From the NCBI GenBank assembly GCA_028281945.1, contig JANQIW010000095.1, positions 1 through 30,371 of the forward strand: a stretch of 30,371 nt of DNA, written 5' to 3'. Source of the stretch: Prochloraceae cyanobacterium PL24a_bin.78 (GTDB lineage: Bacteria > Cyanobacteriota > Cyanobacteriia > Cyanobacteriales > JANQIW01). The notes under the pieces were generated by a model, which worked only from the letters and a program-made list of their open reading frames with translations, had not been told where the DNA came from and ran no database searches. Both the position numbers and the translations under genes were made by a program. Positions 1,157-18,444 of the stretch are shown here, in pieces; positions within the stretch are counted from its first letter, which is position 1, and every line of letters begins with the position of its first letter.

Positions 1157-1480
1157 TTATGGCGAGCTACTATTCTGTTGAGTTTTTGGCAGAGAACTGG
1201 TCAAAGCTCGATGCACAGCTTCCGGCTCATGATCGATAACTTTGAGAAAATTCCTTGATGGGCCCGATGGCACACGGCGGCCTTGCTCCCAATCTTGGAG
1301 GGTTCTTAGGGAAACCCCAAAATAATCAGCAAAGACGTTCTGACTCATATTGAGCTTAAGACGGATACGCCGGACATTAATTTCTTCGGGGATATGAACA
1401 ACAGAGCCGTTGTCTTCTCCTCTAGCAAAGGCAAGTGCTTCTTCCATTCCCTTGATGAGACTTTCACCTAATTCGCTCAT
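1157..1480 (-). CDS. XRE-family HTH antitoxin (HigA-like)
   Basis: 107 aa. 'MSQNVFADYFGVSLRTLQDWEQGRRVPSGPSRNFL' is a classic XRE/Cro HTH with the 'Q.WE.G...P' signature. Its start overlaps the upstream toxin stop by 4 nt (ATGA). Local GC is about 45-47% against a background near 30%. Confidence 0.75.
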   Translation of the reverse strand: MSELGESLIKGMEEALAFARGEDNGSVVHIPEEINVRRIRLKLNMSQNVFADYFGVSLRTLQDWEQGRRVPSGPSRNFLKVIDHEPEAVHRALTSSLPKTQQNSSSP

Positions 1481-1821
1481 GTATTTTTCCTCCTATACAT
1501 TTCAACAATACTACTAGACAAAGTTTTCAGGATCTTCTTTTCCTTGTCTGTCATGTTTTCTTTCTGGGTTTTTGCATAAACACTCATCAGAAATACAGGT
1601 ATATCAACGCCGCTGAAAAAAGTAATGACGCGGTATCCACCACCTTTTCCCTTACCTTTGGCAGCTACACGCACTTTTCGCATACCGCCGGTACCGACTA
1701 TTTCCTCCCCTATATCTGGATTAGCCGCAATCAAATCGATAATGCTTTCACGCTCATCATCGGATATACCTAATTTCTTGGCACACCTTATAAATTCGGG
1801 CATTTCAACAACACTTTGCAT
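1477..1821 (-). CDS. RelE/ParE-superfamily toxin (HigB-like; toxin-first order with an XRE antitoxin)
   Basis: 114 aa. 'MPEFIRCAKKLG...GGYRVITFF...VFLMSVYAKTQKENMTDKE' matches HigB/RelE-like addiction-module killer proteins. The gene order (toxin upstream, HTH antitoxin downstream, 4-nt overlap) is the HigBA arrangement. The true start may be the internal Met at 1801-1803 (MPEF...). Confidence 0.75.
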   Translation of the reverse strand: MQSVVEMPEFIRCAKKLGISDDERESIIDLIAANPDIGEEIVGTGGMRKVRVAAKGKGKGGGYRVITFFSGVDIPVFLMSVYAKTQKENMTDKEKKILKTLSSSIVEMYRRKNT

Positions 1822-2019
1822 GGGTCCATTATATACGGCATTGCCGTAGGTTTGTCAAACTTGTTTTGAGAGCTAATTTATAAAGTAGATTTTAAACTAC
1901 ACTCCAAGTTACCCCCTCAAATCCACTGTAAATAGGTACTTTTGAAAATATGTTGCTCAATTTAAAATATTCTTGGCACTCTCGAAATTTTATGCTACAA
2001 TAAATAAATGTACAATTTA

Positions 2020-2093
<74 letters not shown>

Positions 2094-2156
2094 TTCAAAT
2101 TTTTATATAATGATAAGAGCTAGTAAGGCTTAAAATACTGGAAAATAAAAGTTAGG

Positions 2157-4199
2157 ATGTCTGATCAAATTTCTCAACTATCTACTATATCTTCAACCAA
2201 ATCTTATAATAATATTCTCACCATTATTCCTGTTTATAATGAAGAAGAAACCATTGCCTCCGTAATTGCCTCATTAAAACAATATAATCTTACCAAAATT
2301 AGAATTATAGATAATGGAAGCACAGATAAAAGTGCAAACATTGCTAAATCAGCCGGTGCAGAAGTGATTTTTGAACCAATTTTAGGCTATGGGCAAGCCT
2401 GTTGGCGTGGTTTACAAGAGCTTCCCCCTGAAATCGAGTGGATTTTATTCTGTGATGGAGATGGCAGTGATGATTTAAGCCAATTGCCAGAGTTTCTTGC
2501 GCAAAGAGATAATTACGATTTTATTGTCGGCAATCGCACCGCTACTGTTGCAGGGAGAAACGCTATGACTCCTGTTCAACGTTTTGGCAATAAATTGTCT
2601 ACTCTACTGATTTATTTAGGCTGGCAATACCAATATCACGATCTCGGGCCTTTACGTTTGATTCATCGCAACGCTATAGAAGCAATGGAAATGAACGATC
2701 GCAATTTTGGTTGGACAGTAGAAATGCAGGTTAAAGCCATCGAGTCTAACTTGCAAATTCTGGAAATCCCTGTGGATTATCATCAACGACAAGGGGGTAA
2801 ATCTAAAATCTCCGGCACCATCCAAGGTACCATTAAAGCAGCTACAATTATTCTTAAAACTATTGGTTATTTATACTGGCGTAAAATTTTGAATCAATTT
2901 CTCAAACCAAAAAAAATTTTATTGATCTTAAGCACTTTTTTATTGGTTATGGGTGCTTTTTTGAGCTTTCCTTATGGAGATTTTACCATTGCGGGAATGG
3001 TTCCCCAATTCTGGAAAGGCATTGCCGTGATGAGTTTGGGCTTTATTCTTTCATGGAAATTGCCATCTCTTACAGGTATATGGTTTTGGAGTGTGGCAAT
3101 TATTACCAGATTAATTCTTTTACCAATGGAACCGGGAGAGGATATTTGGCGATATCTTTGGGAAGGTTATATCCAAAATCAAGGTTTTAGTCCATATGAT
3201 TTCCCTCCCATTGCTCCTGAATTAGAATCAATTCGCCCTGAATGGTGGTCGAAAATTCTTCATCCTACTATTTCTGCTATTTATCCACCTATTACTCAGT
3301 TTGGTTTTCGAGCGATCGCTGCTATTAGTCCTAGTGTAATTTTATTTAAAATTGGATTTATTATTGCAGATTTATTGATTTGTTGGCAACTGAGTAGGAA
3401 ACTTGGGTATCTTAAATCAACTCTTTATGCTTGGAATCCTGTAGTTATTTATTCATTTGCTGGAGGAGCACATTATGACAGTTGGTTTATTTTACCTTTA
3501 GTTGGTGCTTGGTTAGTATTTGATTACGAAGAAAACCCTTCTCGTTGGTTAATTAGTGCTTTATTACTAGGGATTAGTATCGCTGTTAAATGGATAACTT
3601 TACCAATTTTAGGATTTTTAGCATGGCAAGCGTGGCAAAAAGAAGGATTTAAAAAAGCAGTATTGGTAGGAATTTGTGGAATTTTACCTTTAATTTTGAC
3701 AGCAATACCCTTTTGTTACTCAGGAGAATGTCAATTAATCCCAACAAATTCTGCATTTGTAGTTTATGGGCGTAGTGCTGACTTATTTCCTTATTTACTT
3801 GCATTAGTTTGGGAGGAATCCCGCCAAGCAAATTGGTATTATCTTGTTCCTTTATCTTTAGCAATTTTGTTATTATTATGGAAAACAAAGACTTTCCAAT
3901 CCTTTTCTAGTAATTTTTTATTTGCTCTTTTAACTCTTTCTCCCATTATTCATTTATGGTATTTTACTTGGTTAATGCCTTTCGCTACTGTCACTCGAAA
4001 TTTAGGGGCGCGTTTAGTTAGTATATCTGCCTTTATTTATTTTATTTTACCCCATCGCATGAGTTTGGGAATTAATGATTGGTTATTGTCACCAATAGAA
4101 AGACTTTTTCTGTGGTTACCTTTTGTGTTGGGTTGGTTTTGGACTATTTTTAAGGAAAATCATAATGTTTTAGATACATCTAAAGATGTTACTAGTTAA
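2157..4199 (+). CDS. Fusion protein: N-terminal GT2 (DPM1/GtrB-like polyprenol-phosphate glycosyltransferase) plus a C-terminal polytopic membrane domain (GT-C / DUF2029-like)
   Basis: 680 aa. The N-terminus 'IIPVYNEEETI...IIDNGSTD...ILFCDGDGSDD' is a GT-A fold GT2 with a DXD motif. Residues from about 250 onward contain many predicted TM helices rich in W, F and L. HIP1 octamer GCGATCGC sits inside the gene at 3312-3319. Confidence 0.7.
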   Translation: MSDQISQLSTISSTKSYNNILTIIPVYNEEETIASVIASLKQYNLTKIRIIDNGSTDKSANIAKSAGAEVIFEPILGYGQACWRGLQELPPEIEWILFCDGDGSDDLSQLPEFLAQRDNYDFIVGNRTATVAGRNAMTPVQRFGNKLSTLLIYLGWQYQYHDLGPLRLIHRNAIEAMEMNDRNFGWTVEMQVKAIESNLQILEIPVDYHQRQGGKSKISGTIQGTIKAATIILKTIGYLYWRKILNQFLKPKKILLILSTFLLVMGAFLSFPYGDFTIAGMVPQFWKGIAVMSLGFILSWKLPSLTGIWFWSVAIITRLILLPMEPGEDIWRYLWEGYIQNQGFSPYDFPPIAPELESIRPEWWSKILHPTISAIYPPITQFGFRAIAAISPSVILFKIGFIIADLLICWQLSRKLGYLKSTLYAWNPVVIYSFAGGAHYDSWFILPLVGAWLVFDYEENPSRWLISALLLGISIAVKWITLPILGFLAWQAWQKEGFKKAVLVGICGILPLILTAIPFCYSGECQLIPTNSAFVVYGRSADLFPYLLALVWEESRQANWYYLVPLSLAILLLLWKTKTFQSFSSNFLFALLTLSPIIHLWYFTWLMPFATVTRNLGARLVSISAFIYFILPHRMSLGINDWLLSPIERLFLWLPFVLGWFWTIFKENHNVLDTSKDVTS

Positions 4200-5166: not shown

Positions 5167-6030
5167 ATGAATAAATTCAAGACATTTTCCATTTTATTAT
5201 CCACTATTGTGATCTTAAGCGGTTGTGGTGTTTCAGCTCCAGAATTAGGAGCAGATTCTCAAAATTCTTCCGACAAAACAAATACCGCAATTAAACAACA
5301 ATTTAGCTATGAAAAATATGCTGATGTTTTGAAAAAATATGTTGATGATAAAGGTTTAGTTGATTACCAAGGATTGAAAGCAGATCGACAAAAACTAGAT
5401 GAATTTGCAGCAGCGATTGGAGCAGTTCATCCTGAAACTTATAGTTCTTGGAGTGAAACAGAGAAACTAACTTTTTTAATTAATGCTTACAATGCTTTAA
5501 CATTACAATTAATCATTAATCAAGACCCAATTCCTGCTAGTATTCGAGATATTTTTAATCCTTGGAAAGGTCCTAAATTTCCCGTTGTTGGAAAAGAAAT
5601 AAGTTTAGATGAAATTGAACATGGAATTATTAGGCAAAAATTTGACGAGCCTAGAATCCATGTAGCTTTGGTTTGTGCGGCAATAAGTTGTCCTATACTA
5701 TTAAACGAGCCTTACTATCCAGATCAATTGGATGCTCAACTAGATAAGCAATCAAAAGCATTTGCTGAAAGTCCTCAAGGTTTCGCCATCGATCGTAATA
5801 ATAAAGAGGTTAGTCTTTCTTCCATTTATAAATGGTATGGTCAAGATTGGGAGGGAAGTTATGGAGTAGATAGTAATAAATTTACCGGCAAGTTTAGTGG
5901 TAATAATAGCGAAAAAGCAGTATTAAATTATATCAGTAAATATCTTCCAGCAGAAGAAAAAGAATATCTCCAAGAAGGAAATTATCGAGTTAATTATCTT
6001 GATTACGATTGGTCTTTAAATGAGCAATAA
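5167..6030 (+). CDS. DUF547-family lipoprotein
   Basis: 287 aa. Lipoprotein signal with lipobox 'ILSGC'. Conserved DUF547 blocks 'LTFLINAYNALTLQLII' and 'HVALVCAAISCPILL' are present. SD-like 'agagag' lies upstream. Confidence 0.7.
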   Translation: MNKFKTFSILLSTIVILSGCGVSAPELGADSQNSSDKTNTAIKQQFSYEKYADVLKKYVDDKGLVDYQGLKADRQKLDEFAAAIGAVHPETYSSWSETEKLTFLINAYNALTLQLIINQDPIPASIRDIFNPWKGPKFPVVGKEISLDEIEHGIIRQKFDEPRIHVALVCAAISCPILLNEPYYPDQLDAQLDKQSKAFAESPQGFAIDRNNKEVSLSSIYKWYGQDWEGSYGVDSNKFTGKFSGNNSEKAVLNYISKYLPAEEKEYLQEGNYRVNYLDYDWSLNEQ

Positions 6031-6069: not shown

Positions 6070-6105
6070 ATCAGAAATCTAACAGAAATCTAACAGAAAT
6101 TTAAT
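6070..6105. repeat. Tandem 11-nt repeat (TAACAGAAATC x3) in the convergent intergenic spacer
   Basis: 'cagaaatctaacagaaatctaacagaaatttaatc' lies between the 3' ends of the DUF547 gene and the RNB gene. Confidence 0.6.
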
Positions 6106-8017
6106 CAAAAGAGGAATAAGCAAAAGTTTGTTTTAACCTCTTTAATAAACTAGAAGCTGCCAATTGTTTAGCTTCTTTTTTGCTTTTACCATTACCTTTA
6201 TTGGTAAAAGTTTTATCTTCTAAAATAAGAGTTACTATACATTGAAAACCATTTGCTAATGACGAATATTTATAGTTAGGCACAGGCCAACTTAACTGTT
6301 GAGAAAGATTATTTAAAATAGCAATAGAATTGTCAGAAGATTCAAAAATTTCGTTAATATATTCTTCATTAAATTCTTCTCCCCAAAAATAATCTTCATC
6401 TTCAATCCATTCTTCTTCTTCCTCAATTTCGTCATTTTGTATTGCTAGCAAATTATTAGTATTGTCTGTATTTTTTTCTATTTTTGATGTATTTTGAAAA
6501 TTGAAATTTCTTTCTTCAATTGTTACTAATTCCTCTTCACAAAATGCCACTAACCATTGAGAAGCTGCGGATTGTTTAGCTTCTTTTTTAGAATTAGCAA
6601 TTTCAGGATTAAAAGTAGTTTCATCATCTACCACTAACCATGCAGCAAAAGGAGGTGCAGATAATTCTTCATAAATAAAATCTACTTGTTTGCCCATTTG
6701 TCTAGCAATTGAATTTAAAGCTTGGAGAAAATCTGAAGGATTTTTGTCCCCCCAATCTTTTAATTCTTCGAGTTTTAATTCATGCTTGAAAATGATTAAA
6801 GCGACATCTTTAAGAGTTAAAGTATTTTTATTAAATCTATTAATTATTTCAGGTAATAGTTTACCAATATTCTCATCATTAGCTACCTCTAAAAGTTTAG
6901 TAAATTCTTTAGCTGATAAACGAGAATAAATAGATTCATCTTGCAGATTTTGATTAATTATAGCTTGTGATTTTGCTTTCATAATCTCTTTTTTAGTTTG
7001 ACGAGTTTGTTCGCGATACTCATTAAGATGGTTGGCTATTTTTTCTAATTCTTCTTGAGTATATGGAATATTTTCTCCTTTAATTATAGACTTAATAATG
7101 CGATGATTAACTATATCTGCATATCTTCTAATAGGAGAAGTAAAGTGACAATAACTATCTAAATTTAAAGCAAAATGTCCTTCACAATTTTCTTGATAAA
7201 CCGCAGGTTTAAGATGGGATTGTAAATATTTTCTAATTAATTCGCTACTACCTAAATCTCTTAAACTTTTGATAAAAGTGTTTCTATCTTCAGGAATTTC
7301 TCCTGCTTTATGATTGCGATACATTCCTAGCTGGGTTTTTTCTAATAAAAAATTAGCAATAGCCATATTAGCTAAAATCATAAATTCAGCGATAATTTGC
7401 TGACTATTATATTGAATTTCTTTAGTAATATTTCCTTCTTCATCTAAGTTTAAATCCCCAATAGACATTGAACCAATTGCCCCTCTATCTTGACGAAGAT
7501 AATTTAATTTTTTAGCCCAAATTTCGCAATATTTTAAAAGAGGATATAATTGTTTTGATGGAGAAATTAAAGTTAAATCTGCCTCTTCATAAGCAAATCT
7601 TTTAATACTAATTAATAAGGTTTCTTGGATTTCAGTATTAACAATATTAGCACTAGAATCTAAAGTTATTTTTACAGTTAATGTAGGGCGATGTTTTCCT
7701 TCTAAAAGACTAGTTTTTTCTTCTGACAAGATTCTGGGAAACATAGGAATATTTCCTTTAGCTAAATAGACAGTTTCCACTCTTGTTAATGCTTCTTTGT
7801 CTAAGGCACTATTTTTATGAACATAAGCAGAGACATCTGTGATATGAATACTTAAAATTGCACCATTATTAATAATTTCAATCCAAATAGCATCATCTAA
7901 ATCTTTACTACTACTAGAGTCAATGGTAAAACCACATACCTGAGGGCGGCTTGAATAATCTATTGTAACTGTATTAGCTTCTGTTAGGACTTCTCTGGTA
8001 AATATTTTTTTAAACAT
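6101..8017 (-). CDS. RNB-domain 3'-5' exoribonuclease (RNase II/R family) with two C-terminal dsRNA-binding motifs and no CSD or S1 domains
   Basis: 638 aa. The RNB catalytic signature 'SSSKDLDDAIWIE...IHITDVSAYV' sits at the very N-terminus, so no cold-shock domains precede it. The C-terminus carries two DSRM units: '...PSDFLQALNSIARQMGKQVDFIYEE...SKKEAKQSAASQWLVAF' and '...NSIAILNNLSQQLSWPVPNYKY...KSKKEAKQLAASSLLKRLKQ'. An acidic linker (EEEEEWIEDEDYFWGEEF) separates them. Confidence 0.8.
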   Translation of the reverse strand: MFKKIFTREVLTEANTVTIDYSSRPQVCGFTIDSSSSKDLDDAIWIEIINNGAILSIHITDVSAYVHKNSALDKEALTRVETVYLAKGNIPMFPRILSEEKTSLLEGKHRPTLTVKITLDSSANIVNTEIQETLLISIKRFAYEEADLTLISPSKQLYPLLKYCEIWAKKLNYLRQDRGAIGSMSIGDLNLDEEGNITKEIQYNSQQIIAEFMILANMAIANFLLEKTQLGMYRNHKAGEIPEDRNTFIKSLRDLGSSELIRKYLQSHLKPAVYQENCEGHFALNLDSYCHFTSPIRRYADIVNHRIIKSIIKGENIPYTQEELEKIANHLNEYREQTRQTKKEIMKAKSQAIINQNLQDESIYSRLSAKEFTKLLEVANDENIGKLLPEIINRFNKNTLTLKDVALIIFKHELKLEELKDWGDKNPSDFLQALNSIARQMGKQVDFIYEELSAPPFAAWLVVDDETTFNPEIANSKKEAKQSAASQWLVAFCEEELVTIEERNFNFQNTSKIEKNTDNTNNLLAIQNDEIEEEEEWIEDEDYFWGEEFNEEYINEIFESSDNSIAILNNLSQQLSWPVPNYKYSSLANGFQCIVTLILEDKTFTNKGNGKSKKEAKQLAASSLLKRLKQTFAYSSFD

Positions 8018-8025
8018 AAATTAAA

Positions 8026-9393
8026 TTAATAATTGTTATTAGGAATTTCTAGATTTAAAAATTTAGTTAATTCTGGTTTAAATAAAAGCTTAATTTGTCC
8101 TGTAGGCCCATTTCTTTGTTTAGCAATAATAACTTCAGCGATTCCTCTATCTGGAGTATCTGGATTATAATATTCATCTCTATATAACATCATTACTAAA
8201 TCTGCATCTTGCTCAATAGATCCTGATTCTCTTAAATCTGATAACATCGGACGTTTATTATTTCTTTGTTCCACAGCCCGACTTAATTGTGAAAGGGCAA
8301 TGAGAGGAACGTTTAATTCCCTCGCTAAACCCTTTAAAGCACGTGTTATTCTAGATAATTCTTGTACACGGTTATCACTAGAACTGCCTTCCATCAACTG
8401 TAAATAATCTAATAAAATTAAACCTAATTCCTTTCTTTGGTCTGATTTTTGGTCTGATATTAAACGACGTAAATCCGATCTCATTTGCATCACAGTCAAA
8501 CTAGCATTATCATTAATATAAATAGGAAGGTCTGCTAAAGCTCCCACTGCTGCACCCAAAGGATCTAATTCCATTTGAGTTATGCGACCCGAACGTAACT
8601 TATTACTATCAATCCCTGTTTCGCCAGACAATAAACGGACAGATAATTGTTGTTTTGACATTTCTAAACTAAAGATTGCCACCATTAATTTCTCCTCAAG
8701 AGCAACATGATGGGCTATATTTAGGGCAAAACTAGTTTTTCCCATACTAGGGCGGCCAGCAATAATAATTAAATCCGATCGTCCTAAACCATTAGTCCTA
8801 GCATCTAAATCATAAAAACCAGTATTGATTCCGGGATTGCCAGTTTTGTTATACAACTTTTCAATCTCTTGAAAAGCATCAATCACCGTTTCAGAAATAG
8901 GGATTAAACCTTCTTGAGGACGCTTTTGAATCAGGTTAAAAATAGCTTTTTGAGAACTATTCATAACGGATTCAATTTCTTGAGTTGTATCATAACCTAA
9001 TTTTATAATTAGATGACCAGCTTTAATTAATTCACGACGTAAGAATTTATCCATTACTAAAGGGGCATGATGTTCAATTGTTATTGCTGAAACTGTACGA
9101 TCTACTAATTGTGTTAACTTTGTAGTTCCGCCTACTTCTTCTAAAAAACCTCGATCTAATAACCAAGTAGTTACTGTCATTAAATCAGTGGGTTTTCTTT
9201 GATTATATAAATATATTGCCCCTTCATAAATTTTTTTGTGAGCTTGGATATAAAAAGCTTCAGGATTGATTAAATTAACAACTCTTCCCATGGCTTCAGG
9301 ATCCAATAAAATACCTCCTAAAATCGCCTCTTCAGCATCAATATTTTGTGGTGGAAGAGAGTTTTGGGAAAATTGTGGTTTAAATTCTACCAT
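8026..9393 (-). CDS. dnaB: Replicative DNA helicase DnaB (intein-free)
   Basis: 455 aa. N-terminal DnaB domain 'NIDAEEAILGGILLDPEA'. Walker A 'IIIAGRPSMGKTSFALNIA'. Its stop lies only 8 bp upstream of the RNB gene start, so co-transcription is likely. Confidence 0.95.
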   Translation of the reverse strand: MVEFKPQFSQNSLPPQNIDAEEAILGGILLDPEAMGRVVNLINPEAFYIQAHKKIYEGAIYLYNQRKPTDLMTVTTWLLDRGFLEEVGGTTKLTQLVDRTVSAITIEHHAPLVMDKFLRRELIKAGHLIIKLGYDTTQEIESVMNSSQKAIFNLIQKRPQEGLIPISETVIDAFQEIEKLYNKTGNPGINTGFYDLDARTNGLGRSDLIIIAGRPSMGKTSFALNIAHHVALEEKLMVAIFSLEMSKQQLSVRLLSGETGIDSNKLRSGRITQMELDPLGAAVGALADLPIYINDNASLTVMQMRSDLRRLISDQKSDQRKELGLILLDYLQLMEGSSSDNRVQELSRITRALKGLARELNVPLIALSQLSRAVEQRNNKRPMLSDLRESGSIEQDADLVMMLYRDEYYNPDTPDRGIAEVIIAKQRNGPTGQIKLLFKPELTKFLNLEIPNNNY

Positions 9394-10293
9394 ATTAAAA
9401 ATAATAAATTTTTATTATTAAGATAGTAACCAAGATTATTATCATTAATCCCATTTACTAGCTATATATTATATAGTTTATTATTTTAACTTAAAAACAT
9501 GAGACTACTTTAGTTTAATTTTTATCTTCAGCTAAGGAGATAATTGTATCTAAATTTATTATTGTATCTTAAATTGTCTTTTGATAAAATCTGTTAACAC
9601 TATCAATAATAACCATAAAATTATGATGTTTTATCCTCGTTTTTAAAACAAAATTTTCCTCTTTAATTTTTCTTTCAAGGCTGTTATAATCTATTCTTCA
9701 AGTTAAGAATTGTATGTATCATTATATTTCTACTGATTTTTGGAGTAATATTAATTGTTATTATCTTAATTCTTGTTACCAAAAATGTCGAGAAAATGCC
9801 TCTGTTAAATTTTTCTATAAAAGTTAAAATTAAAATTAGACGGAAATAAATCCTACGCAAGAAATAAACCAAACTTTTTTTTTGAAAATTTGTTATATCA
9901 AATGGTCTTTAACAACGATAGAGTTAAAAAATCCCAAATCCAGGATAATTAACCAAAATTTATTCTCCCCATTCTTCCCATTTTCTCCATTCTCCCCTCA
10001 ATATCTATCACTATTAAAGAGAAACGATATTAACCATGTGATGAATATGAGTTTTTGGTTGGCTTGCTTGTTTGATTTGTGATTACTAATTATGATTTTT
10101 AAATTTGATTAACCTGACTCACAAAAATTTTTACAAAAAAAAGATATAGATAAAAATACATTTATTCTTATCTTTTTATGTTTATAGATTTTAAATAACC
10201 TAAATCAATTAGAAACTTAATATTTTTCAGGTAAATTTGGGAAAAGAAAAAACTCGATTTGATCATCGACTTATGACTTAAATACAAATTAAA

Positions 10294-12144
10294 TCAAGAT
10301 TCTCCTTTAAGCAATAATTCCATTCCTTTTGCCGTTTCGGCTTGAATTTTTAATTCATTACCAATGTCATCAGTAAGTTTTTTTAACTCTTCTCCTAAAC
10401 CTTGTGGCAATAAAACTTGTGTACTTTGAGCCGTTGCCAAAATCCCTGCAACTTCCAATAAACGTTGCAATAAAAGATTACGAGCTTCTTCGCATTTTTC
10501 TAAACTTTTCAACCAACCTTGAGGTAATTGATTGTATTGTAAAGACTGAGTTTCTAAATAAGATAAAGTTCGATCTAATCCATCTAATTGAATTGCTGCA
10601 TCGGCAGATACTTTAAGCAAATTAGATACATATCCCACTATTTCTTCTCGTTGTTCGGGAGTTTTTCTGGTATCAAACCAAATTTGACTAATGCGGACAA
10701 TATCGCTAAATAAATTACGGGCTGTAGTAGAATTTAAATCTTCCATAATTTCTACCACAATTTCTTGGAGTTTGGAGGGTAATTTTGATTGACTAGGCCC
10801 CGGAGTAAGTAATGGTTTTCCTATAGATTGATGAGCCAACAATAACAATCCTATGGCAAATAGCCCACTAAAACCTCCACTGACAAAGGATCCTACTCCC
10901 AAAATCGCCCCTGTTAAACCGTAAAAATTCTGAGGAATTGCTTTCCAAAGTTGATTTTTACTTAAAGCACGTACATAAATTTGTTTTTTAGCTAATTCTT
11001 CTACTACTGAATTAACTTGAGAGTCATCGAGACACACTAATGCTTTAGTTCCTGAAATAGTTTCTTTTAAACCCTCTCGTTGTGGGGATAAATTAAACAA
11101 CGCTCTAATTTTATCTAGGTTTTTTTCTTGTTTATCTTTATCTCCGTGAAGAGATTCTAACAGCAAATAGGTGGAAGGTTTAGAGACTATTCCTTTGCAT
11201 CCAGGACATATAGAAATTCCTAAAAAGGTTTCTGTTCCACAAACTAGACATGAATGATTGGATTTCTTTAAAGATTTAGCCATTCCACTCTTATCTATCA
11301 AAGTAATTCCTTGGCTTTTATTTTCAGATAATGCTTCCTCAAATCTAGCTACACTAGAAAAGCGATCGTTAGGATTAGCACAAGTAGCTTTAGCAATTAC
11401 TTCATCCAACCAAAAAGGAACATCTAGGCAAATATCTTTGACATGACAGCCTAAAGCTGGAAACTTTCCATCTAATGGTCGGTAAATTTCACCTGTAAGG
11501 GCAAAATATAAAGTCATTCCTAATGCAAATATATCGCCTTTAGAATTAATTTCTTTGCCATCTAGTACTTCTGGTGGAGTATATAATCCATCAAACAACC
11601 GCTTTCTTTCATTTTTACTTAGTTGATGTTCTATTCTGATAGAGCCAAAGTCACTTAAACGAGAATAACCATTGGATTCTAGAAAAATATTATTAGGTTT
11701 AATATTTCCGTGAATTATACCACGTCTATGAGCGGCGGCTAAAGCAGAAGCTATTTGTATACCAATAGAAACTACTTTATCTGAGGGTAAAACTCCTTCT
11801 TGTTTGATTATGGTTTGCAGGTTAGTCCCATCAACTAACTCCATAATTATGAGACTGCGATCAACTAAATCCATAATTATGAGAGTTTGGGAGTCAAAAT
11901 CTATATAATCGTAAGTTTGGATAATGTGAGGATGATTAAGAGAACGAGCTGCTATAACCCTTTTCTTAGTTTTTTCTTTACCTATTTTTGCTAAAATAGG
12001 AGGAGGTATTAATTGTTTTACAGCCACATTTTGTTTCAATTGAATGTCTTCGGCTTTGTAAACAACAGAATACCTGCCTCGTCCAATCTCCTTGATAATG
12101 GAATAACGGTCTTGTATAACTGTTCCGGGAGCAAAATAATTCAT
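10294..12144 (-). CDS. Membrane-anchored Hanks-type Ser/Thr protein kinase homologue with HGN replacing the catalytic HRD (predicted pseudokinase), a zinc ribbon, one TM helix and a helical C-terminal domain
   Basis: 616 aa. Gly-loop 'IGRGRYSVVY', beta3 Lys 'VAVKQL', DFG 'SDFGS', 'YTPPE' and 'DIFALGMTLY' are all present. The catalytic loop reads 'IIHGNIKPNNIFL' where HRDLKPxN is expected (DNA GGAAAT where CGNGAY is expected). After the kinase come 'CLVCGTETFLGISICPGCKG' (CxxC...CxxC), a TM segment 'LTGAILGVGSFVSGGFSGLFAIGLLLLA', and about 190 aa of helical C-terminus. Confidence 0.8.
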   Translation of the reverse strand: MNYFAPGTVIQDRYSIIKEIGRGRYSVVYKAEDIQLKQNVAVKQLIPPPILAKIGKEKTKKRVIAARSLNHPHIIQTYDYIDFDSQTLIIMDLVDRSLIIMELVDGTNLQTIIKQEGVLPSDKVVSIGIQIASALAAAHRRGIIHGNIKPNNIFLESNGYSRLSDFGSIRIEHQLSKNERKRLFDGLYTPPEVLDGKEINSKGDIFALGMTLYFALTGEIYRPLDGKFPALGCHVKDICLDVPFWLDEVIAKATCANPNDRFSSVARFEEALSENKSQGITLIDKSGMAKSLKKSNHSCLVCGTETFLGISICPGCKGIVSKPSTYLLLESLHGDKDKQEKNLDKIRALFNLSPQREGLKETISGTKALVCLDDSQVNSVVEELAKKQIYVRALSKNQLWKAIPQNFYGLTGAILGVGSFVSGGFSGLFAIGLLLLAHQSIGKPLLTPGPSQSKLPSKLQEIVVEIMEDLNSTTARNLFSDIVRISQIWFDTRKTPEQREEIVGYVSNLLKVSADAAIQLDGLDRTLSYLETQSLQYNQLPQGWLKSLEKCEEARNLLLQRLLEVAGILATAQSTQVLLPQGLGEELKKLTDDIGNELKIQAETAKGMELLLKGES

Positions 12145-12156
12145 AGTCGAGTGAAT

Positions 12157-12777
12157 TTAGAACCGTTGCTGATTAAAAGCTTCAATATCTTCTAAAACTG
12201 TTAGAGCATTATTACGCCAACCATCATTATTGGAGTAAATACGAAGGAATCTTTCTAGATTTATTTCTGCTTCATAATAAGAACCTATCAGATATTCAAA
12301 CATACCAGCATGGTATAAAGCTATGTAATTGTTTGGTTGATATTCTAACACTAAATTCATAATAGGCCCTGCTGATTCTTCATCTCCAGCATCGGCGATG
12401 GGACTCGCTAGGTTAAATATTACTGAAGCTGCATATTCTTTATGTCTGTAACATGGTAATTTTTCGATTAATTCTCTAGCCTCATCAATTTTCCCTGCCA
12501 AAGCGTAGCATCCAGCGGCATATGCTCTGCCTTCAATGGTATTGGGGTGGGGGTTAGAAAGGATTGCTGTTGTTACTTCTACAGAATTGCATTGAGGTTT
12601 GATGGAATTAAACCATTTTTCCCCTCTTGAGATATTTCTGGAGTTGTCTCGATGGGATGATATTTCTTGCTTAGTATAGTTTGATCTTGTTTGTGTTTCT
12701 GGGATAAAAGGGCGAGCCGCTAATATCAATGTACAAAGTCCGAGATAGGTAAATCCTAATTTATAAAGTAAACGCAT
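12157..12777 (-). CDS. Secreted TPR-like / helical repeat protein
   Basis: 206 aa. Signal-peptide-like N-terminus 'MRLLYKLGFTYLGLCTLILAA', then Ala/Tyr-rich helical repeats ('AYAAGCYALAGKIDEARELIEKL', 'ALYHAGMFEYLIGSYYEAEINLERF'). Ends 12 bp upstream of the kinase start. Confidence 0.5.
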   Translation of the reverse strand: MRLLYKLGFTYLGLCTLILAARPFIPETQTRSNYTKQEISSHRDNSRNISRGEKWFNSIKPQCNSVEVTTAILSNPHPNTIEGRAYAAGCYALAGKIDEARELIEKLPCYRHKEYAASVIFNLASPIADAGDEESAGPIMNLVLEYQPNNYIALYHAGMFEYLIGSYYEAEINLERFLRIYSNNDGWRNNALTVLEDIEAFNQQRF

Positions 12778-12855
12778 AATTTTAATTGGCTGATTTTATT
12801 GCCGGGAAATAGCTTTTTTTTAGTATAGTCTATTTCTACCATAAGATAGTCTTTG

Positions 12856-15486
12856 TTAGTTCAAGTTCATTTTTTTTGTTATTTTGGGGACTATTTTTAA
12901 AATTGGTTTAGCATCAACTCCTAGATTTCTAGCTTCTTCAAATAATTTCTTGACAAGTTGACTGTATTCTTGGCGAGTTATTTTTTCTTTGGATGCTTCT
13001 GACATTAGTCTTGCTGTATATTCTTGCAATACTACTACTTTGTCTGAGGGTAAATCTGAGCTTATGTTTTCTACTATTTGAGCTAATCCTTCTAAGGCGG
13101 TATCTTTTTCATAGCGATTGGCTATTTCTATCATTAATTTGGCAAACCTAAAAAATAGAGGTTTAAATTTTAAACCTTCAAGCATTGTACAACTTGCTTT
13201 TGGTGGGCAAATTTCACTGAGGATATTTTGATCTACGTCTTCAACTCCTATGGCTAAAAAGTTTAGTTTCTCTTCTGCAAAAGCTTCTTGAATTTTTTCT
13301 GCTGATTGTTGCCAGTTGTCATCAAGAGTACTACCTGCAATGGTGATGATCCAAGGTTGATAGTGTTGAATATTTTGCTCTTTAAAAATCTTTTGACGAT
13401 CGTCAATTACCTTAAGTGCTAATTCTAATCCTTCTCCTATGGCTGTGGATCCTTCTAATTCGACTTCAGTGAGGTTATAGTTTGCATTATCAGTAAAAGG
13501 TTTAATGGTTTTTACTGGTGTACCAAAGGTTATAATTGCTACTTCGATACACTTATTAGTATTTGGATCATTGCTTAATTGTTCTTTAAATTTATTGATC
13601 CCTTTGATTAATTCTTCCTTATACTCTGTTGACATGGAATCAGACGTGTCTATCAGTAATACTACTAAACACTTAGGTAAAGCTTCTTTTAGTCGAGGCT
13701 GAGTATATTCTCCGTTGCTTGGTAATTGGGATTGATTTGATGAAGTATCAAGCATTGGGGTAACAAATGCTTCCAAAATTTCCGAGCGTCCACCATCAGA
13801 GTTTACTAAAACATGGGGGAGTTGAATATTTGACCAATTATTGATTTTTAGGTAATTAAAATAATTATGAACACCACCAAGAGCTTGAATTTTAGATTGA
13901 ATTGATTCTGCATCTGCTTGATCTTGATACCATTGTGCTTGTGCTTGATTTTTGGCAATTTGTATATTGTCTTGAGATTCATATAGTTTCTTTTGTCGAT
14001 CTGTTTGAAATTCAATTAATTCCTCTCTTTGTTTTGTGAAGGCTTCTTGTTCTATCAGTTTTCTACGTTTTTCTTCATTTTCGATTTTAACTTGATAGCT
14101 TTCTGTTTTTTGTCTTTCTATTTCTCGCTCAGTTAAAATCTTCTCAAGTTCCTCTGGTAAATCTATTTCATTAATTAATGTATTAACACCTATAATACCA
14201 TATGACTTTAAGCTTCTTTTTATATATCCTTTTACATTTTGTGCTATCGTATTTCTCGCAGAATGAAAGTCTATAGCTTTGAATTCTTGTGCTGCACTCC
14301 TAAAATAATAACTTATATTTGGTTCTAAAACTTTTTTAATCAAATTTCTCATGCGATCATATGGCTTGACTATATATTCTTTACTATTTTCAACTTTTTC
14401 TAAATCTAATCCTTGTGAATTAACAGAGACAATACTAGCAATCATCTTAGGAGCATTTTCTGGTAGTATTTGAATAATCTGGGTAAGTTCGATGTAAAAT
14501 TCAAATCCATCTTTGGAACGAAGGTTTAAAGGTTCGAGATTTAAATCATAGTTCATTGCAGTAGACTGAGACTCTTCTTTTTTTGACCAATCTAATGCTA
14601 TTTCGTTAGTAGGAACAAGATTTATCTTCTGTAGATAAGTATTTATAGGATATTTATTAGGTCGTAAAGGTTCTTTATGTATTCCTTTATATTCTTTATC
14701 TACTAAATACTCTTCACCATTTTTTAATTCTTTATCTTTTTTTGTCGTCTCCTTACAAGGAGGAGTTTTACCAACATAAGATATCACAACTCCTACTGTT
14801 CCAGTAGGAATTACTGTTAATGGAACTTTTTCTATTTTAACAAACCAAGGATTTAAATACCAGTTACCCACAGGAATTATTTCTTCTTGTAAACCTTTAC
14901 ACCCACCATTATCAATAAATGCTTGGGCATCTTGAAATTTGTTATGATCTTCTATACATGGACCTGCTATTTCGCCTTCTGGAATTGGTAGACCATCTTT
15001 AGTTGTAACAATGCCAATCATATCTGTTTCTATATGATAGACCTTTAAATCTTCTGGATTTACATTATGTTCTTTAGCATTGGCAGAAGTGATTACAGTA
15101 AAAAGTTTGGTATTAATTCTGTATGTTCCTGCTCTTAAGATTCCTAATTGTTCCCCTTTTTCCCCACCATTGGCTAAGAAAGCAACTCCATCTTGAAAAT
15201 CACTACAGGGAACTATTCTTCCTAAATTTTGTGTATAACTTTCTGCCTTTGTTTCTCCATCTTTAGCTACTACTAAACCAATTTCTCCTTGAGGAATTTC
15301 TATGGCAGGTACTATCTCAACTTCCATAAGCCAAGGACTATAAAAATGTGTACCAGGTGGAAGAATCTCTGCTTGATAACCAGTTTCCCCATTAGTAGCA
15401 ATTTGTTTTCCTGGTGGTAATTTAGAGCCAACTTTTTTATACTTAATTCCTACTTGGTTTGGTCCAATTTCAATGGTTTTTAACAT
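12856..15486 (-). CDS. SPFH/flotillin-like protein with triplicated N-terminal 'IPxGEIG..KDG' modules and a coiled coil, fused to a C-terminal von Willebrand factor A (vWA) domain
   Basis: 876 aa. SPFH-like 'GPNQVGIKYKK...ILPPGTHFYSPWLMEVEIV'. Three repeats: 'IPQGEIGLVVAKDG', 'IPEGEIAGPCIEDH' / 'IGIVTTKDG', 'IPTGTVGVVISYVG'. Flotillin-type EA-rich coiled coil 'ERQKTESYQVKIENEEKRRKLIEQEAFTKQREELIEFQTDRQKK'. vWA with a MIDAS 'LLIDTSDSM' (DxSxS), '...GSTAIGEGL' and 'IITIAGSTLDDN'. An extra helical tail of about 130 aa follows. Confidence 0.7.
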   Translation of the reverse strand: MLKTIEIGPNQVGIKYKKVGSKLPPGKQIATNGETGYQAEILPPGTHFYSPWLMEVEIVPAIEIPQGEIGLVVAKDGETKAESYTQNLGRIVPCSDFQDGVAFLANGGEKGEQLGILRAGTYRINTKLFTVITSANAKEHNVNPEDLKVYHIETDMIGIVTTKDGLPIPEGEIAGPCIEDHNKFQDAQAFIDNGGCKGLQEEIIPVGNWYLNPWFVKIEKVPLTVIPTGTVGVVISYVGKTPPCKETTKKDKELKNGEEYLVDKEYKGIHKEPLRPNKYPINTYLQKINLVPTNEIALDWSKKEESQSTAMNYDLNLEPLNLRSKDGFEFYIELTQIIQILPENAPKMIASIVSVNSQGLDLEKVENSKEYIVKPYDRMRNLIKKVLEPNISYYFRSAAQEFKAIDFHSARNTIAQNVKGYIKRSLKSYGIIGVNTLINEIDLPEELEKILTEREIERQKTESYQVKIENEEKRRKLIEQEAFTKQREELIEFQTDRQKKLYESQDNIQIAKNQAQAQWYQDQADAESIQSKIQALGGVHNYFNYLKINNWSNIQLPHVLVNSDGGRSEILEAFVTPMLDTSSNQSQLPSNGEYTQPRLKEALPKCLVVLLIDTSDSMSTEYKEELIKGINKFKEQLSNDPNTNKCIEVAIITFGTPVKTIKPFTDNANYNLTEVELEGSTAIGEGLELALKVIDDRQKIFKEQNIQHYQPWIITIAGSTLDDNWQQSAEKIQEAFAEEKLNFLAIGVEDVDQNILSEICPPKASCTMLEGLKFKPLFFRFAKLMIEIANRYEKDTALEGLAQIVENISSDLPSDKVVVLQEYTARLMSEASKEKITRQEYSQLVKKLFEEARNLGVDAKPILKIVPKITKKMNLN

Positions 15487-15583
15487 GATACCCTTCCTAA
15501 TGTTTTGTTAATATTTATCGTGATTTTCTTGAAATTTTACGCATTTAGTTTTAATGTTTTGATCAATTAATGTTAGTTAATAA

Positions 15584-16579
15584 TCAATTTCCATCAATTC
15601 TGCATTTTTCACATCGAGATAAAAAGCCTTTAAAATTCTCTCTCCAAATTCCTAACTCTTCCTCTTCATCTGGATCCTTAGCTATACTGAATTGTAATGA
15701 AGGTAGATGTCCTCGTCTTGCTTGTAAATCAAAGGTGAAATCTTCATGTTTGAGCCATTCTTCATTTTGATACCAACCTACTAGTTCACCGAATTGATAG
15801 TAAAGTATGGGATTAAATTCTCCTTTTTTTCCTCCGATACTCAACCAAAGATCTCTTTGAACACTAAAACCAAAATGCCCTTTTGATTTATTTAACCAAA
15901 GATTATTGATGATTTTGAGGTCTTTACAAGGAAAATTTTCTATATCTTTAGGCTTTAACCAACCTTCTTTCTCTCTTTTGGCTACTTTTAGGATAACTTT
16001 TGCTGTTTCTATATCTGCTTCTTTCCATTGTCCTGCTTCGAGATATTCTCGTAATTGTTCATAATTGCCGATTATTTTGTCTTGATTAGGTTTCCTATAA
16101 GTATCTTGATGTGGTTGATATCCTATAGTTTCATTGGGCATCTCTAAAATTTCTGCGTCATACTGGATTCTTTGATTTCTAGTAGAATGAGAGAAGTTTT
16201 CAATTTCGTTAATAAGATGATCTACTTCAAACAATTCATCCCTCAATCTTTGAGACGAAGAAATTTGAGGATTTGTCGTTCTTGGAGGAAGATAATTCCT
16301 ATCCTGAAAATTCCCATAACTATCATATTCTGGAGGATATTGTCTGGATTTTGTGGATGAATCTTTTGTTTCTGCTTCTTCTGCCATTTCTGCTTCTAAA
16401 AGCTGGATGTCTTTTTCGCATTCTTCTATTTCTTCATCTAATTCTTCTATTTCGATTTTTAAGTCTCCAATTAATTTCAGATTAGATCTATTTTTGGCAA
16501 TATCTTGTTTATATTGAGCACGTCTTCTTTTTAAAGTATCCCTCGTTTTTTTGAGAATTTCCAAAGTTTCTTTTGACAT
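15584..16579 (-). CDS. Coiled-coil protein with a C-terminal GUN4-like (porphyrin-binding) domain
   Basis: 331 aa. The N-terminal ~70 aa is a charged coiled coil (LKIEIEELDEEIEECEKDIQLLEAEMAEEAE). C-terminal 'LREYLEAGQWKEADIETAKVIL...DLKIINNLWLNKSKGHFGFSVQRDLWLSIGG...FGELVGWY...RRGHLPS' matches the GUN4 domain signature. Confidence 0.7.
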   Translation of the reverse strand: MSKETLEILKKTRDTLKRRRAQYKQDIAKNRSNLKLIGDLKIEIEELDEEIEECEKDIQLLEAEMAEEAETKDSSTKSRQYPPEYDSYGNFQDRNYLPPRTTNPQISSSQRLRDELFEVDHLINEIENFSHSTRNQRIQYDAEILEMPNETIGYQPHQDTYRKPNQDKIIGNYEQLREYLEAGQWKEADIETAKVILKVAKREKEGWLKPKDIENFPCKDLKIINNLWLNKSKGHFGFSVQRDLWLSIGGKKGEFNPILYYQFGELVGWYQNEEWLKHEDFTFDLQARRGHLPSLQFSIAKDPDEEEELGIWRENFKGFLSRCEKCRIDGN

Positions 16580-17826: not shown

Positions 17827-17934
17827 AACTTAAAGTTATACCTAAATCAAACCTAAAATAGGCCTGAAGACAAACATCATGACTTGATAATAAAAGGGAA
17901 GAAAGAAATAAAATCAAAAAAATCAAGAAAAATC

Positions 17935-18180
17935 ATGAACTATACTGTTTTAGATAAGATTAATGAGAATCAAATTACGACTCAAGTACAAATTGAATTA
18001 CGTCAAAGAGATAGAAATTTTCAAGAAGTAGGATTGTTAGGAGTTAATTTAGAAGGATTAGATTTAAGTCAAATAGATTTAAAAGAAGTAAAGTTGTCTA
18101 ATGGAAAACTGATAAAAGTGTTATTGATATTTTTTATTTATATAGTTGTTCTTGGATATTCTTATTCTAAATGTGTTTGA
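17935..18180 (+). CDS. Truncated pentapeptide-repeat paralog with a hydrophobic C-terminal anchor
   Basis: The N-terminus 'MNYTVLDKINENQITTQVQIELRQRDRNFQEVGLLGVNLEGLDLSQIDL' aligns with the N-terminus of the 17329 protein ('MNDQELTELINKQIVAEIRNRYIQGERDFQGAQLQGINLSGLNLAGVDL'). It ends in a TM-like tail 'LIKVLLIFFIYIVVLGY'. Start chosen at the internal Met. No clear SD. Confidence 0.4.
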   Translation: MNYTVLDKINENQITTQVQIELRQRDRNFQEVGLLGVNLEGLDLSQIDLKEVKLSNGKLIKVLLIFFIYIVVLGYSYSKCV

Positions 18181-18243
18181 AGTTATTGATTGATTTTTAT
18201 TATATATTTTGATGTATTTAAACAGAAGATAGAGGGGGTTGAT

Positions 18244-18444
18244 ATGAAAGAAGTGTCTTCACAAATTATTAGTTTAGTTGAAAGTCTAAGAGATAAACAA
18301 CAAGATAGATTAACTATTACAAGTCATCTGGCTGATAAAATTCATAAAGTGCAAATCTTACTTGAAGAAAATTCCATTTTAGAGGCAAAAAAAATCATTG
18401 CTGATGCCTTACAAGAGTGTGAAGAGTTAATTAGAATAGTTTAA
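18244..18444 (+). CDS. Small helical protein (~66 aa), paralog A of an uncharacterised family
   Basis: Start taken at 'MKEVSS' preceded by the strong SD 'agagggggttgatATG'. Paralogous to the 18784 ORF. Confidence 0.45.
   Translation: MKEVSSQIISLVESLRDKQQDRLTITSHLADKIHKVQILLEENSILEAKKIIADALQECEELIRIV

Follow-up and report, generated by a model that had tools for sequence, protein, structure and literature searches.

Enzymes of the RNase II/R type are nucleases that thread single-stranded RNA, and their substrate choice is set by the CSD and S1 domains. Cyanobacteria, the hosts considered here, show pervasive antisense transcription and have several RNase III genes. Variants of the RNase II/R plan have been described. 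The RNase II of Deinococcus radiodurans (PDB 2R7D) and the RNase R of Haloferax volcanii have a reduced RNA-binding apparatus and are still active (PMC12320835). Each cyanobacterial genome has two to three RNB proteins, and the existence of an RNase R-like activity in cyanobacteria has been called unclear (PMC10989914).

The window analyzed here is a stretch of DNA of 30,371 nucleotides from Prochloraceae cyanobacterium PL24a_bin.78. One of its genes encodes a protein in which an RNB core with an intact active site is followed by a helical module and two domains with the dsRBD fold, the second dsRBD helix having a conserved basic start. The protein belongs to a large family of the same architecture. 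The reading that we favor, with a probability of about 0.6, is that the family represents an active subfamily of RNB exoribonucleases whose dsRBDs would dock on RNA duplexes while the RNB core trims 3' tails, and that the gene in the window is co-transcribed with dnaB without forming a functional module with it. The positions of all the features are given in Table 1.

Table 1. Features of the RNB-dsRBD gene and its upstream neighborhood, in window coordinates
Feature	Position	Strand	Basis or remark
RNB-helical-dsRBD-dsRBD exoribonuclease gene	6101..8017	-	Complete ORF, 638 aa + stop; ORF list, Pfam RNB + dsrm, AF2
RNB catalytic domain, residues 30-313	7079..7930	-	Pfam PF00773, E 8.2e-71
Active-site motif TID33-x5-D39-L-D41-D42, metal-binding Asp quartet	7892..7921	-	Conservation and RNase R alignment
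Long connecting helix (residues 321-359) and helical bundle (361-425)	6743..7057	-	Family-specific module
dsRBD1, residues 427-493, alpha-beta-beta-beta-alpha, SKKEAKQSAAS helix	6539..6739	-	Pfam dsrm, AF2
Disordered acidic linker, ~residues 500-550 (EEEEEWIEDEDYFWGEEFNEEY)	6368..6520	-	pLDDT, composition
dsRBD2, residues 564-635, canonical dsRBD, SKKEAKQLAAS helix	6113..6328	-	
Spacer between dnaB stop and RNB start	8018..8025	-	8 bp, tttaattt; read directly from sequence
dnaB, replicative helicase, 455 aa	8026..9393	-	Pfam DnaB + DnaB_C; upstream gene, probably same transcript
AT-rich non-coding DNA upstream of dnaB, ~900 bp	9394..10293	-	Likely promoter region of the dnaB-RNB pair

The reading frame of the RNB gene starts with an ATG and cannot be extended upstream because an in-frame TAA (8023-8021) immediately precedes this codon. 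The possibility that the protein extends further at its N-terminus, or that another frame encodes CSDs, was considered and rejected: besides the stop, the upstream DNA is filled by dnaB, which ends 8 bp away, and the homologues begin in the same way. The N-terminal start is common to the homologues in alignment A1, a few of which have short extensions and one of which (P0080) has a long one. The claim of the original prediction that no CSD-containing extension lies upstream is therefore confirmed. The same prediction had the protein starting directly at the KDLDDA motif. The RNB core is indeed N-terminal, but it is preceded by some 29 residues, among them a short helix. The AF2 model of the protein has a mean pLDDT of 88.3. 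An Rfam search of the whole window returned a tRNA-Val alone, and no match near the RNB gene.

The predicted RNB core is borne out by the Pfam match listed in Table 1, which scores 239 bits (cut-off 29.3) and covers profile positions 10-325 of 326. In a Foldseek comparison the core matches RNase R, RNase II and Dis3L2 with E values of 1e-27 to 1e-19, and phmmer pairs it with the RNase R chain 8cdu_C of the PDB (E 4e-38). Residues D33, D39, D41 and D42 and, in the SPIRR motif, R297 and R298 are all present and are invariant across the 55 homologues of alignment A1. The active-site motif aligns with tidgadakdldda of the B. subtilis RNase R. We take the Asp quartet D33/D39/D41/D42 to be equivalent to D201/D207/D209/D210 of the E. 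coli RNase II. The RNB domain, the four Asp residues and the Arg of SPIRR place the protein in the RNase II/R (RNB) superfamily, and it is apparently a catalytically competent 3'-to-5' hydrolytic exoribonuclease.

The helical module that follows the core is found solely in the RNB-helical-dsRBD context. Downstream of it, the AF2 model of dsRBD1 has helices at residues 427-440 and 477-493, which enclose strands at 445-449, 457-463 and 472-474, and the alpha-beta-beta-beta-alpha fold of a dsRBD is thus present. The Pfam dsrm profile recognizes two stretches in the whole protein (E 9.2e-15). When the pieces are scored separately, residues 421-500 reach 26.9 bits and residues 501-638 reach 35.7 bits, the gathering score being 23. 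The KKEAKQxAA helix predicted for each domain lies within the SKKEAKQxAAS motifs at residues 475-485 and 611-621. Both domains have KKEAK; K477 of dsRBD1 and K613 and K617 of dsRBD2 are invariant in the family, and Q573 in the alpha1 helix of dsRBD2 is nearly so. Neither domain has the GPxH loop (beta1-beta2, dsRBD region 2), as read from alignment A1. Of the two domains, dsRBD1 is the weaker one and departs further from the canonical form; its scores against Pfam dsrm are weak in most homologues. Thus, of the "two canonical DSRMs" proposed originally, the two C-terminal dsRBDs stand, both above the gathering score, but dsRBD1 is less canonical and has no GPxH-type loop.

The linker between the two dsRBDs has pLDDT values below 50 at residues 510-548 of the AF2 model, and the 59 residues from 498 to 556 contain 20 D/E versus 3 K/R. 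Both the sequence and the length of the linker differ between homologues. The codons for KKEAKQ in dsRBD1 and dsRBD2 share a 19-nt identity. Gene conversion was considered as its origin and set aside; the identity is uninformative because the genome has 30% GC and a strong codon bias.

In the entire 638-residue protein, Pfam finds no CSD, S1 or OB family, with CSD and OB families checked at E values up to 1. In particular, it finds no S1 domain at the C-terminus, and the C-terminal half is predicted to consist of helices and the two dsRBDs. The absence of CSD and S1 domains noted at the outset is in agreement with these searches. The NCBIfam equivalogs all score below their cut-offs (in bits): 235 versus 598 for the RNase R model TIGR02063, 137 versus 642 and 157 versus 542 for the RNase II models TIGR02062 and NF003455, and 219 versus 369 for TIGR00358. 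These scores are low because the CSD and S1 regions are missing.

The protein was originally thought to be singular, which it is not. It is one member of a large family that is already catalogued in the databases, where its relatives are automatically annotated as "RNB domain-containing ribonuclease" or "ribonuclease catalytic domain-containing protein". The same layout is found in many proteins of 600-890 residues with two to four dsRBDs. Most of them are cyanobacterial (Gloeothece PCC 7424, Crocosphaera ATCC 51142 and the Acaryochloris plasmids pREB1-5 carry examples, the Acaryochloris plasmids having many copies), and others occur in Methanosarcina, Thiothrix, Saprospiraceae, Hyphomicrobiales and elsewhere. 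Full-length homologues with the order RNB, helical module, dsRBDs are 34-41% identical to the window protein over 95-99% of its length. With its N-terminal RNB domain, its helical module, at least one dsRBD and this full-length homology, the window protein is a member of the RNB-helical-dsRBD subfamily, and in a neighbor-joining tree it falls within the cyanobacterial clade. With a best match of about 40% identity, the window copy is one of the most divergent members; it stands out by the KKEAKQ that its two dsRBDs share, by its strongly acidic linker and by its unusual place behind dnaB. The subfamily is distinct and widespread: the RNB core forms the N-terminus, and CSD1, CSD2 and S1 are all missing. 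Our literature searches found no paper describing this architecture, real and well represented in the databases as it is, and no biochemical or expression data on any member of the family.

The dnaB gene ends with a TAA at 8028-8026, which leaves the 8 bp to the RNB gene that had been reported for this spacing. The spacer has no Shine-Dalgarno-like sequence, and the translation of the RNB gene is possibly coupled to that of dnaB. The non-coding DNA upstream of dnaB (9394..10293) has no ORF of 120 residues or more. A consensus scan found no promoter-like site on the minus strand in the 3' part of dnaB, and the nearest such sites upstream of the RNB gene are at 9543-9791. The scan adds little because its 22 sites in the region, against 23.4 expected, are not above chance overall. 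The gap of 8 bp is too short for a terminator and no promoter-like site was found in the 3' part of dnaB, so that the proposed co-transcription with dnaB is plausible in this genome, weak as the promoter scan is.

The functional link to the helicase that this proximity was taken to imply is not supported by comparison with other genomes. Relatives of the RNB gene were collected at 80 genome loci, with 1.5 kb or more of upstream sequence available at 63 of them, and a tblastn search with the window DnaB found dnaB upstream of the RNB gene in one of the 80; the synteny whose conservation was to be checked is thus not conserved. The pair does recur, with a gap of 7-8 bp, in a second cyanobacterial MAG (L021/L086), in which the flanking genes differ. 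This is not a close relative: the DnaB proteins are 61% identical and the RNB proteins 36%. The window DnaB is 68-70% identical to cyanobacterial DnaB proteins. The closest RNB relatives, which form the sister clade, have coaE upstream. At the three loci of the closest DnaB relatives, the downstream gene encodes a PMT_2 glycosyltransferase or an esterase, and no RNB gene follows. When ORFs within 4 kb on each side were called in the 80 loci and clustered, no neighbor family was shared by more than eight loci, and the largest family was that of a generic response regulator. A conserved operon partnership with dnaB was rejected on the grounds of the single locus, the coaE of the sister clade and the other followers of the nearest dnaB genes. 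As judged from gene order, the adjacency is specific to this lineage and a local accident, not a functional module.

By combining these observations, it is possible to describe in outline how the enzyme might work. Through its dsRBDs the enzyme would attach to A-form duplex regions (stem-loops, sense/antisense duplexes or RNase III products, for example), and the single-stranded 3' tail next to the duplex would then be degraded in the RNB channel. The dsRBD1 would be held directly after the helical module, and dsRBD2 would move on a flexible acidic tether of about 50 residues. Lacking the CSD/S1 clamp, the enzyme may approach the duplex more closely than RNase II, as the minimal D. radiodurans RNase II reportedly does. 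Duplex docking by the dsRBDs and 3'-tail trimming by the RNB core would be the most likely mechanism, and it is reasonable to infer that the dsRBDs replace the clamp that threads single-stranded RNA as the substrate-recruitment module.

The dsRBDs could be put to a different use. They might be type-B domains for dimerization or for docking to a partner such as RNase III, RNase E or the ribosome, leaving the RNB channel alone to select the substrate. One or both could be of this type, as neither has the GPxH loop and dsRBD1 is weakly recognized in homologues. However, the KKxAK lysines K477, K613 and K617, at positions where canonical dsRBDs contact the RNA backbone, are invariant in both domains, and a number of dsRBDs that varies from two to four among homologues fits an avidity-based binder of nucleic acids better than a fixed protein interface; this use of the domains is therefore unlikely. 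That the protein is an inactive pseudonuclease which only binds RNA, like yeast Ssd1, or comes from a truncated or artefactual gene model, is hardly credible. The RNase R and RNase II equivalog scores far under the cut-offs and the modest identity of 37-41% to the best non-self homologues could be read in this way, but all four catalytic Asp residues and the SPIRR Arg are invariant, the Pfam RNB match is full-length and the model confidence is high. The stop ahead of the ATG and the N-terminal start shared in alignment A1, from which few members (P0080 by a long extension) depart, speak against truncation.

The distribution of the family brings to mind a mobile conflict or defense nuclease, which would, for example, sense or destroy phage or plasmid dsRNA and have no housekeeping function. 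The spread across phyla is patchy and includes archaea; fourteen Acaryochloris plasmid records have copies, CSD-less RNB genes are carried on megaplasmids of Rhodococcus, Pseudomonas and Streptomyces, some genomes have several paralogues or tandem copies, and IS605 OrfB genes lie near the RNB gene in two loci. Such a role is nevertheless quite improbable: no PADLOC family matched at E values up to 0.01, the 80 loci have no constant partner gene or defense-island context, the window gene and its closest relatives are chromosomal and sit among the housekeeping genes dnaB and coaE, and a phage collection gave matches to the RNB domain alone and none to the full-length architecture. It is very doubtful, too, that the position behind dnaB reflects action on replication- or plasmid-linked RNA, i.e. 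R-loop RNA, primers or antisense RNAs controlling replication. The recurrence of the dnaB-RNB pair in the second, not closely related MAG would agree with such action, as would the Acaryochloris plasmids pREB1, pREB2 and pREB4, where a repeated block combines the gene with recA and a RecD-like helicase, and the six loci where it lies beside parA (in three of them also beside parB). Against it stand the rarity of dnaB and of any common neighbor among the 80 loci, coaE in the sister clade and the unpaired closest DnaB homologues. Only a few lineages rich in plasmids show the recA, RecD and parAB contexts, and segmental duplication between plasmids can account for them. Furthermore, dsRBDs bind A-form RNA duplexes preferentially and have little affinity for RNA-DNA hybrids. 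A broader proposal, that the family is a distinct duplex-directed exoribonuclease with a cellular job of its own, perhaps the clearance of sense/antisense duplexes or RNase III products, perhaps the handling of replication- or plasmid-linked regulatory RNAs, seems to us very improbable as well. If its replication and plasmid RNA option were true, the repeated siting by dnaB, by the RecD-like/recA block and by parAB in different lineages would be due to a connection with DNA replication or maintenance rather than to chance.

The favored reading, an active exoribonuclease that docks on duplexes, describes a branch with tandem dsRBDs in place of CSD and S1, which implies a different substrate choice, by duplex recognition. 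Given the antisense transcription and the RNase III genes of cyanobacteria, an exonuclease targeted to duplexes could be a missing step of their RNA decay. What makes the finding valuable is the family, as a target for biochemistry, and not the window gene or its unconserved dnaB neighborhood.

The relation of the window protein to the known systems can be summarized as follows. It has in common with the canonical RNase II and RNase R the RNB domain, the Asp quartet and the Arg, whereas their CSD1, CSD2, S1, HTH and K/R-rich tail are missing and a helical module with two dsRBDs is found instead. The minimal RNB enzymes are no closer to it than RNase R is: 2r7d matches the RNB core with E 2.9e-17 (Foldseek E 4.5e-18), and neither the Deinococcus RNase II nor the Haloferax volcanii RNase R has dsRBDs. 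The Deinococcus enzyme is reported to keep an S1 domain and to have a winged-HTH domain (Schmier et al. 2012). Synechocystis Sll1290 and Sll1910 (Zam) and Anabaena Alr1240 belong to the same phylum and superfamily as the window protein, but they are not among its top 120 relatives; the characterized ones are RNase II-like, and a dsRBD is not mentioned for them. In the bacterial RNase III and in the eukaryotic TRBP, Staufen, ADAR and DCL4, the catalytic module that accompanies the dsRBDs is an endonuclease or is absent, whereas here the dsRBDs are carried on a 3' exonuclease core of the processive type.

The following observations establish the architecture of the RNB-dsRBD protein. The original prediction, an RNB exoribonuclease with two C-terminal double-stranded RNA-binding domains (dsRBDs) and neither cold-shock (CSD) nor S1 domains, is an accurate description, and the inference drawn from its domains is sensible. 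The junction sequence shows that the gene boundaries and the 8-bp spacing to dnaB are exact. Just 5' of the start codon (ATG at 8017) lies an in-frame TAA at 8023-8021, so the RNB-dsRBD frame is not extendable N-terminally and an upstream extension is excluded. Pfam places RNB at residues 30-313 (E 8.2e-71, profile almost fully covered) and dsrm in two stretches (E 9.2e-15), and no cold-shock, S1 or other OB family matches the protein at E up to 1. RNB is thus the N-terminal domain, as had been claimed, but the protein does not start directly at the core, since about 29 residues come first. When segments were scanned apart, dsrm scored 26.9 bits for residues 421-500 and 35.7 bits for residues 501-638 against a gathering score of 23, dsRBD1 being the weaker of the two domains; residues 314-420 alone matched no profile. 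The NCBIfam RNase R and RNase II alignments are confined to the RNB part and lie far under the equivalog cut-offs, and the last 70 residues align to the RNase III dsRBD.

Positions of the gene, its junction with dnaB, the protein modules and the repeated plasmid block
Feature	Position	Strand	Source
RNB-dsRBD ORF, 638 codons	6101-8017	-	ORF list
dnaB, 455 codons, directly upstream of the RNB-dsRBD ORF	8026-9393	-	Pfam DnaB and DnaB_C
dnaB stop codon TAA	8028-8026	-	junction read
dnaB/RNB-dsRBD spacer tttaattt, 8 bp	8018-8025	-	junction read
AT-rich non-coding DNA, ~900 bp, upstream of dnaB	9394-10293		
RNB fold	to ~residue 313		AlphaFold2 model
Long helix	residues 321-359		AlphaFold2 model
Helical bundle	residues 361-425		AlphaFold2 model
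dsRBD1, alpha-beta-beta-beta-alpha	residues 427-493		AlphaFold2 model
Acidic segment, disordered (pLDDT below 50)	residues 510-548		AlphaFold2 model
dsRBD2, alpha-beta-beta-beta-alpha	residues 564-635		AlphaFold2 model
Repeated block, locus L099	pREB1 83946-95799		
Repeated block, locus L094	pREB2 344000-356087		
Repeated block, loci L093 and L096	pREB4		

Both dsRBD folds are present in the AlphaFold2 model, which was built with 55 homologues as input and has a mean pLDDT of 88.3. In Foldseek searches of the PDB, the N-terminal half matches RNase R, RNase II, Dis3 and Dis3L2 (E 1e-27 to 1e-19), and the C-terminal part matches the tandem-dsRBD proteins TRBP, MLE, ADAR2 and DRB4. Each domain carries the predicted KKEAKQxAA helix, within SKKEAKQxAAS at residues 475-485 and 611-621, and the GPxH loop usual in dsRBDs is missing from both.

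Four aspartates, D33, D39, D41 and D42, are invariant in the alignment of 55 family members. They form a TID-x5-D-x-DD motif that aligns to the same motif in B. subtilis RNase R, and correspond to D201, D207, D209 and D210 of E. coli RNase II. Y84, a PM-P motif and H291-T-SP-RR (R297, R298) are also invariant. This pattern indicates an active nuclease; an Ssd1-like pseudonuclease is opposed by the invariant catalytic residues. The invariant residues of the dsRBDs, K477, K613 and K617, are lysines of the KKxAK motif, and their conservation shows that purifying selection acts where canonical dsRBDs touch the RNA backbone.

RNB matches numbered in the thousands when 5.8 billion proteins were searched. 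The best 120 are all 563-886 aa long and 34-44% identical to the query, covering 74-100% of it (most at least 90%); RNB and dsrm were already precomputed for most of them. In members of 750-886 aa the extra length is a third and a fourth dsRBD. Named members, labelled "RNB domain-containing ribonuclease" by NCBI, come from Gloeothece citriformis PCC 7424 ("ribonuclease II"), Crocosphaera subtropica ATCC 51142, Acaryochloris marina, Phormidesmis, Xenococcus, Thermosynechococcaceae and Aphanocapsa. Scanning one genome per GTDB species yielded 542 confirmed relatives, of which 80 were retained. An N-terminal RNB followed by one or two dsrm domains is also found outside cyanobacteria (loci L036, L039, L041, L043, L047, L048, L051, L054 and L062); the non-cyanobacterial records, MAGs or genomes, are labelled Saprospiraceae, Thiothrix, Thiotrichaceae, Hyphomicrobiales, Ktedonosporobacter, Ignavibacteriales, Nanoarchaeia and Methanosarcina, and binning errors may lie behind some of the MAG labels. 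The segment comprising the helical region and dsRBD1, searched alone against 1.84 billion cluster representatives, had no more than 36 matches at E up to 1e-3; wherever the matched protein is full-length, it is 600-800 aa long and the segment falls at about its residues 310-510. The module is accordingly specific to the RNB-dsRBD family. The best non-self identity of the window protein is about 40%, and a neighbour-joining tree groups it with P0003 and the clade of P0008, P0021 and P0029 in a Chroococcales-type branch. The window protein is one divergent representative of a family that is large, widely distributed and already annotated.

The proximity to dnaB is not conserved. Among 80 related loci, 63 of which extend 1.5 kb or more upstream of the RNB gene, tblastn with the window DnaB matched one, L021 (uncultured cyanobacterium GCA_949127655.1), where 7 bp separate the end of dnaB from the RNB-dsRBD gene. 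L021 is not a close relative: its DnaB is 61% and its RNB protein 36% identical, the flanking genes differ, and its RNB gene belongs to another sub-branch of the tree. In the sister clade (P0008, P0021, P0029), coaE lies upstream of the RNB-dsRBD gene with a 1-bp gap or an 11-bp overlap. This close pairing, again with a housekeeping gene but a different one, occupies L082 4403-6881, L084 3400-5806 and L101 2400-4806, each with a divergent M48 peptidase gene upstream. An IS605 OrfB gene precedes the RNB-dsRBD gene in Gloeothece PCC 7424. In the three closest DnaB homologues examined, dnaB is followed by a PMT_2 glycosyltransferase gene or by an esterase gene on the opposite strand, and no family of neighbouring ORFs, clustered over the 80 loci, is common to more than 8. 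The dnaB adjacency is a local feature, and the RNB-dsRBD gene seems to be tucked tightly behind whatever housekeeping gene comes before it.

Of the predicted link with the helicase, co-transcription is likely in this genome, but a functional module finds no evolutionary support in the loci compared. A consensus scan of the window found the stretch from 7407 to 9542 free of minus-strand promoter-like sites and the dnaB/RNB-dsRBD spacer free of terminator-like ones. The nearest upstream minus-strand promoter-like sites lie in the AT-rich region upstream of dnaB. The site total over the scanned region is not above chance, so the promoter scan is weak evidence. The AT-rich region contains ATTCTCCCC four times at 9962-9997 and matched nothing in Rfam. 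At the other end of the gene, the 11-mer CAGAAATCTAA occurs in three tandem copies (6072-6104) overlapping the stop codon, inside the 70-bp spacer to a convergent DUF547 gene at 5167-6030 (+).

No DnaB in the databases is more than 70% identical to that of the window, and the best matches with a name are from Hydrococcus, Xenococcaceae, Chroococcus and Crocosphaera. GC averages about 31%, and GUN4, pentapeptide, Uma2, CobQ and PPK2 are typical cyanobacterial genes of the window. The host is a low-GC cyanobacterium of Chroococcales/Pleurocapsales type that lacks close relatives among sequenced genomes. A 97-aa ORF at 4520-4813 matches only the C-terminal half of Uma2, a putative restriction endonuclease (profile positions 88-170 of 172), and is probably a truncated remnant. 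Four codirectional genes at 10294-16579 (-), for a Ser/Thr protein kinase (616 aa), a TPR protein, an SPFH/Band-7 and VWA protein (876 aa) and a GUN4-domain protein, may form a signalling cluster. The GC minimum (24%) at 17884-18984 has a strongly positive GC skew (+0.33) and small ORFs only, two of which (18190-18444 and 18784-18984) appear to encode paralogous helical proteins, 66-84 aa in length. A 376-aa ORF at 25691-26821 with a DDE_Tnp_IS240 transposase domain indicates an insertion sequence.

One alternative is a role for the enzyme that is linked to replication or plasmids. PLSDB contains copies on 14 Acaryochloris plasmid records, and on pREB1, pREB2 and pREB4 of Acaryochloris marina the gene is part of a repeated block made up of RecD-like helicase, recA, hypothetical, GNAT, RNB-dsRBD and RRM protein genes. 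parA adjoins the gene in six loci (Aphanocapsa, Phormidesmis, Acaryochloridaceae and a MAG labelled Pirellulaceae), three of them also with parB. Together with the two dnaB cases, these contexts would give a loose association with DNA maintenance genes, which is improbable: the recA/RecD and parAB contexts are more simply explained if, in a few lineages, the gene sits on plasmids and segments have been duplicated, and the dnaB adjacency is not conserved. A defence role could also be considered, but the window protein matches no PADLOC defence model. The dsRBDs themselves could be protein-interaction modules.

On pREB4 the RNB gene (record positions 1331-3244) is closely followed downstream by a stand-alone 95-aa dsrm-domain ORF (928-1215), an arrangement suggestive of a split or frameshifted copy. 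PLSDB also contains CSD-less RNB genes on Rhodococcus, Pseudomonas and Streptomyces megaplasmids. Those of Pseudomonas sp. VLB120 pSTY (L097) and Rhodococcus sp. ZPP pRZP2 (L098), conjugative or mobilizable megaplasmids, share the post-RNB region and have mostly hypothetical genes as neighbours; on pSTY a PAPS-reductase-family gene precedes the RNB gene.

The window protein has an intact RNB active site, no CSD/S1 clamp, and two dsRBD folds whose basic helix N-termini are conserved; a flexible acidic tether precedes dsRBD2. The dsRBDs would anchor the enzyme to A-form RNA duplex segments, leaving the RNB channel to digest the 3' tail beside the bound duplex. With no clamp, RNA would have a shorter way from the protein surface to the active site, so the enzyme may trim closer to the duplex, as the Deinococcus enzyme studied by Schmier and colleagues in 2012 reportedly does. 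No description of the RNB-dsRBD architecture came up in a full-text literature search that combined RNB or RNase II with dsRBD or DSRM; the fusion is catalogued in databases and appears to be uncharacterised, and the family is worth biochemical study. According to a 2022 review of cyanobacterial RNA decay, there are two or three RNB proteins per genome, study has been limited to the RNase II-like Sll1290 and Alr1240 and to Sll1910, and the existence of an RNase R-like enzyme in cyanobacteria is unclear (PMC10989914). A 2025 review of RNase R (PMC12320835) cites D. radiodurans RNase II and the RNase R of Haloferax volcanii as active RNB enzymes whose accessory domains are minimal, so the absence of CSDs is not unprecedented.
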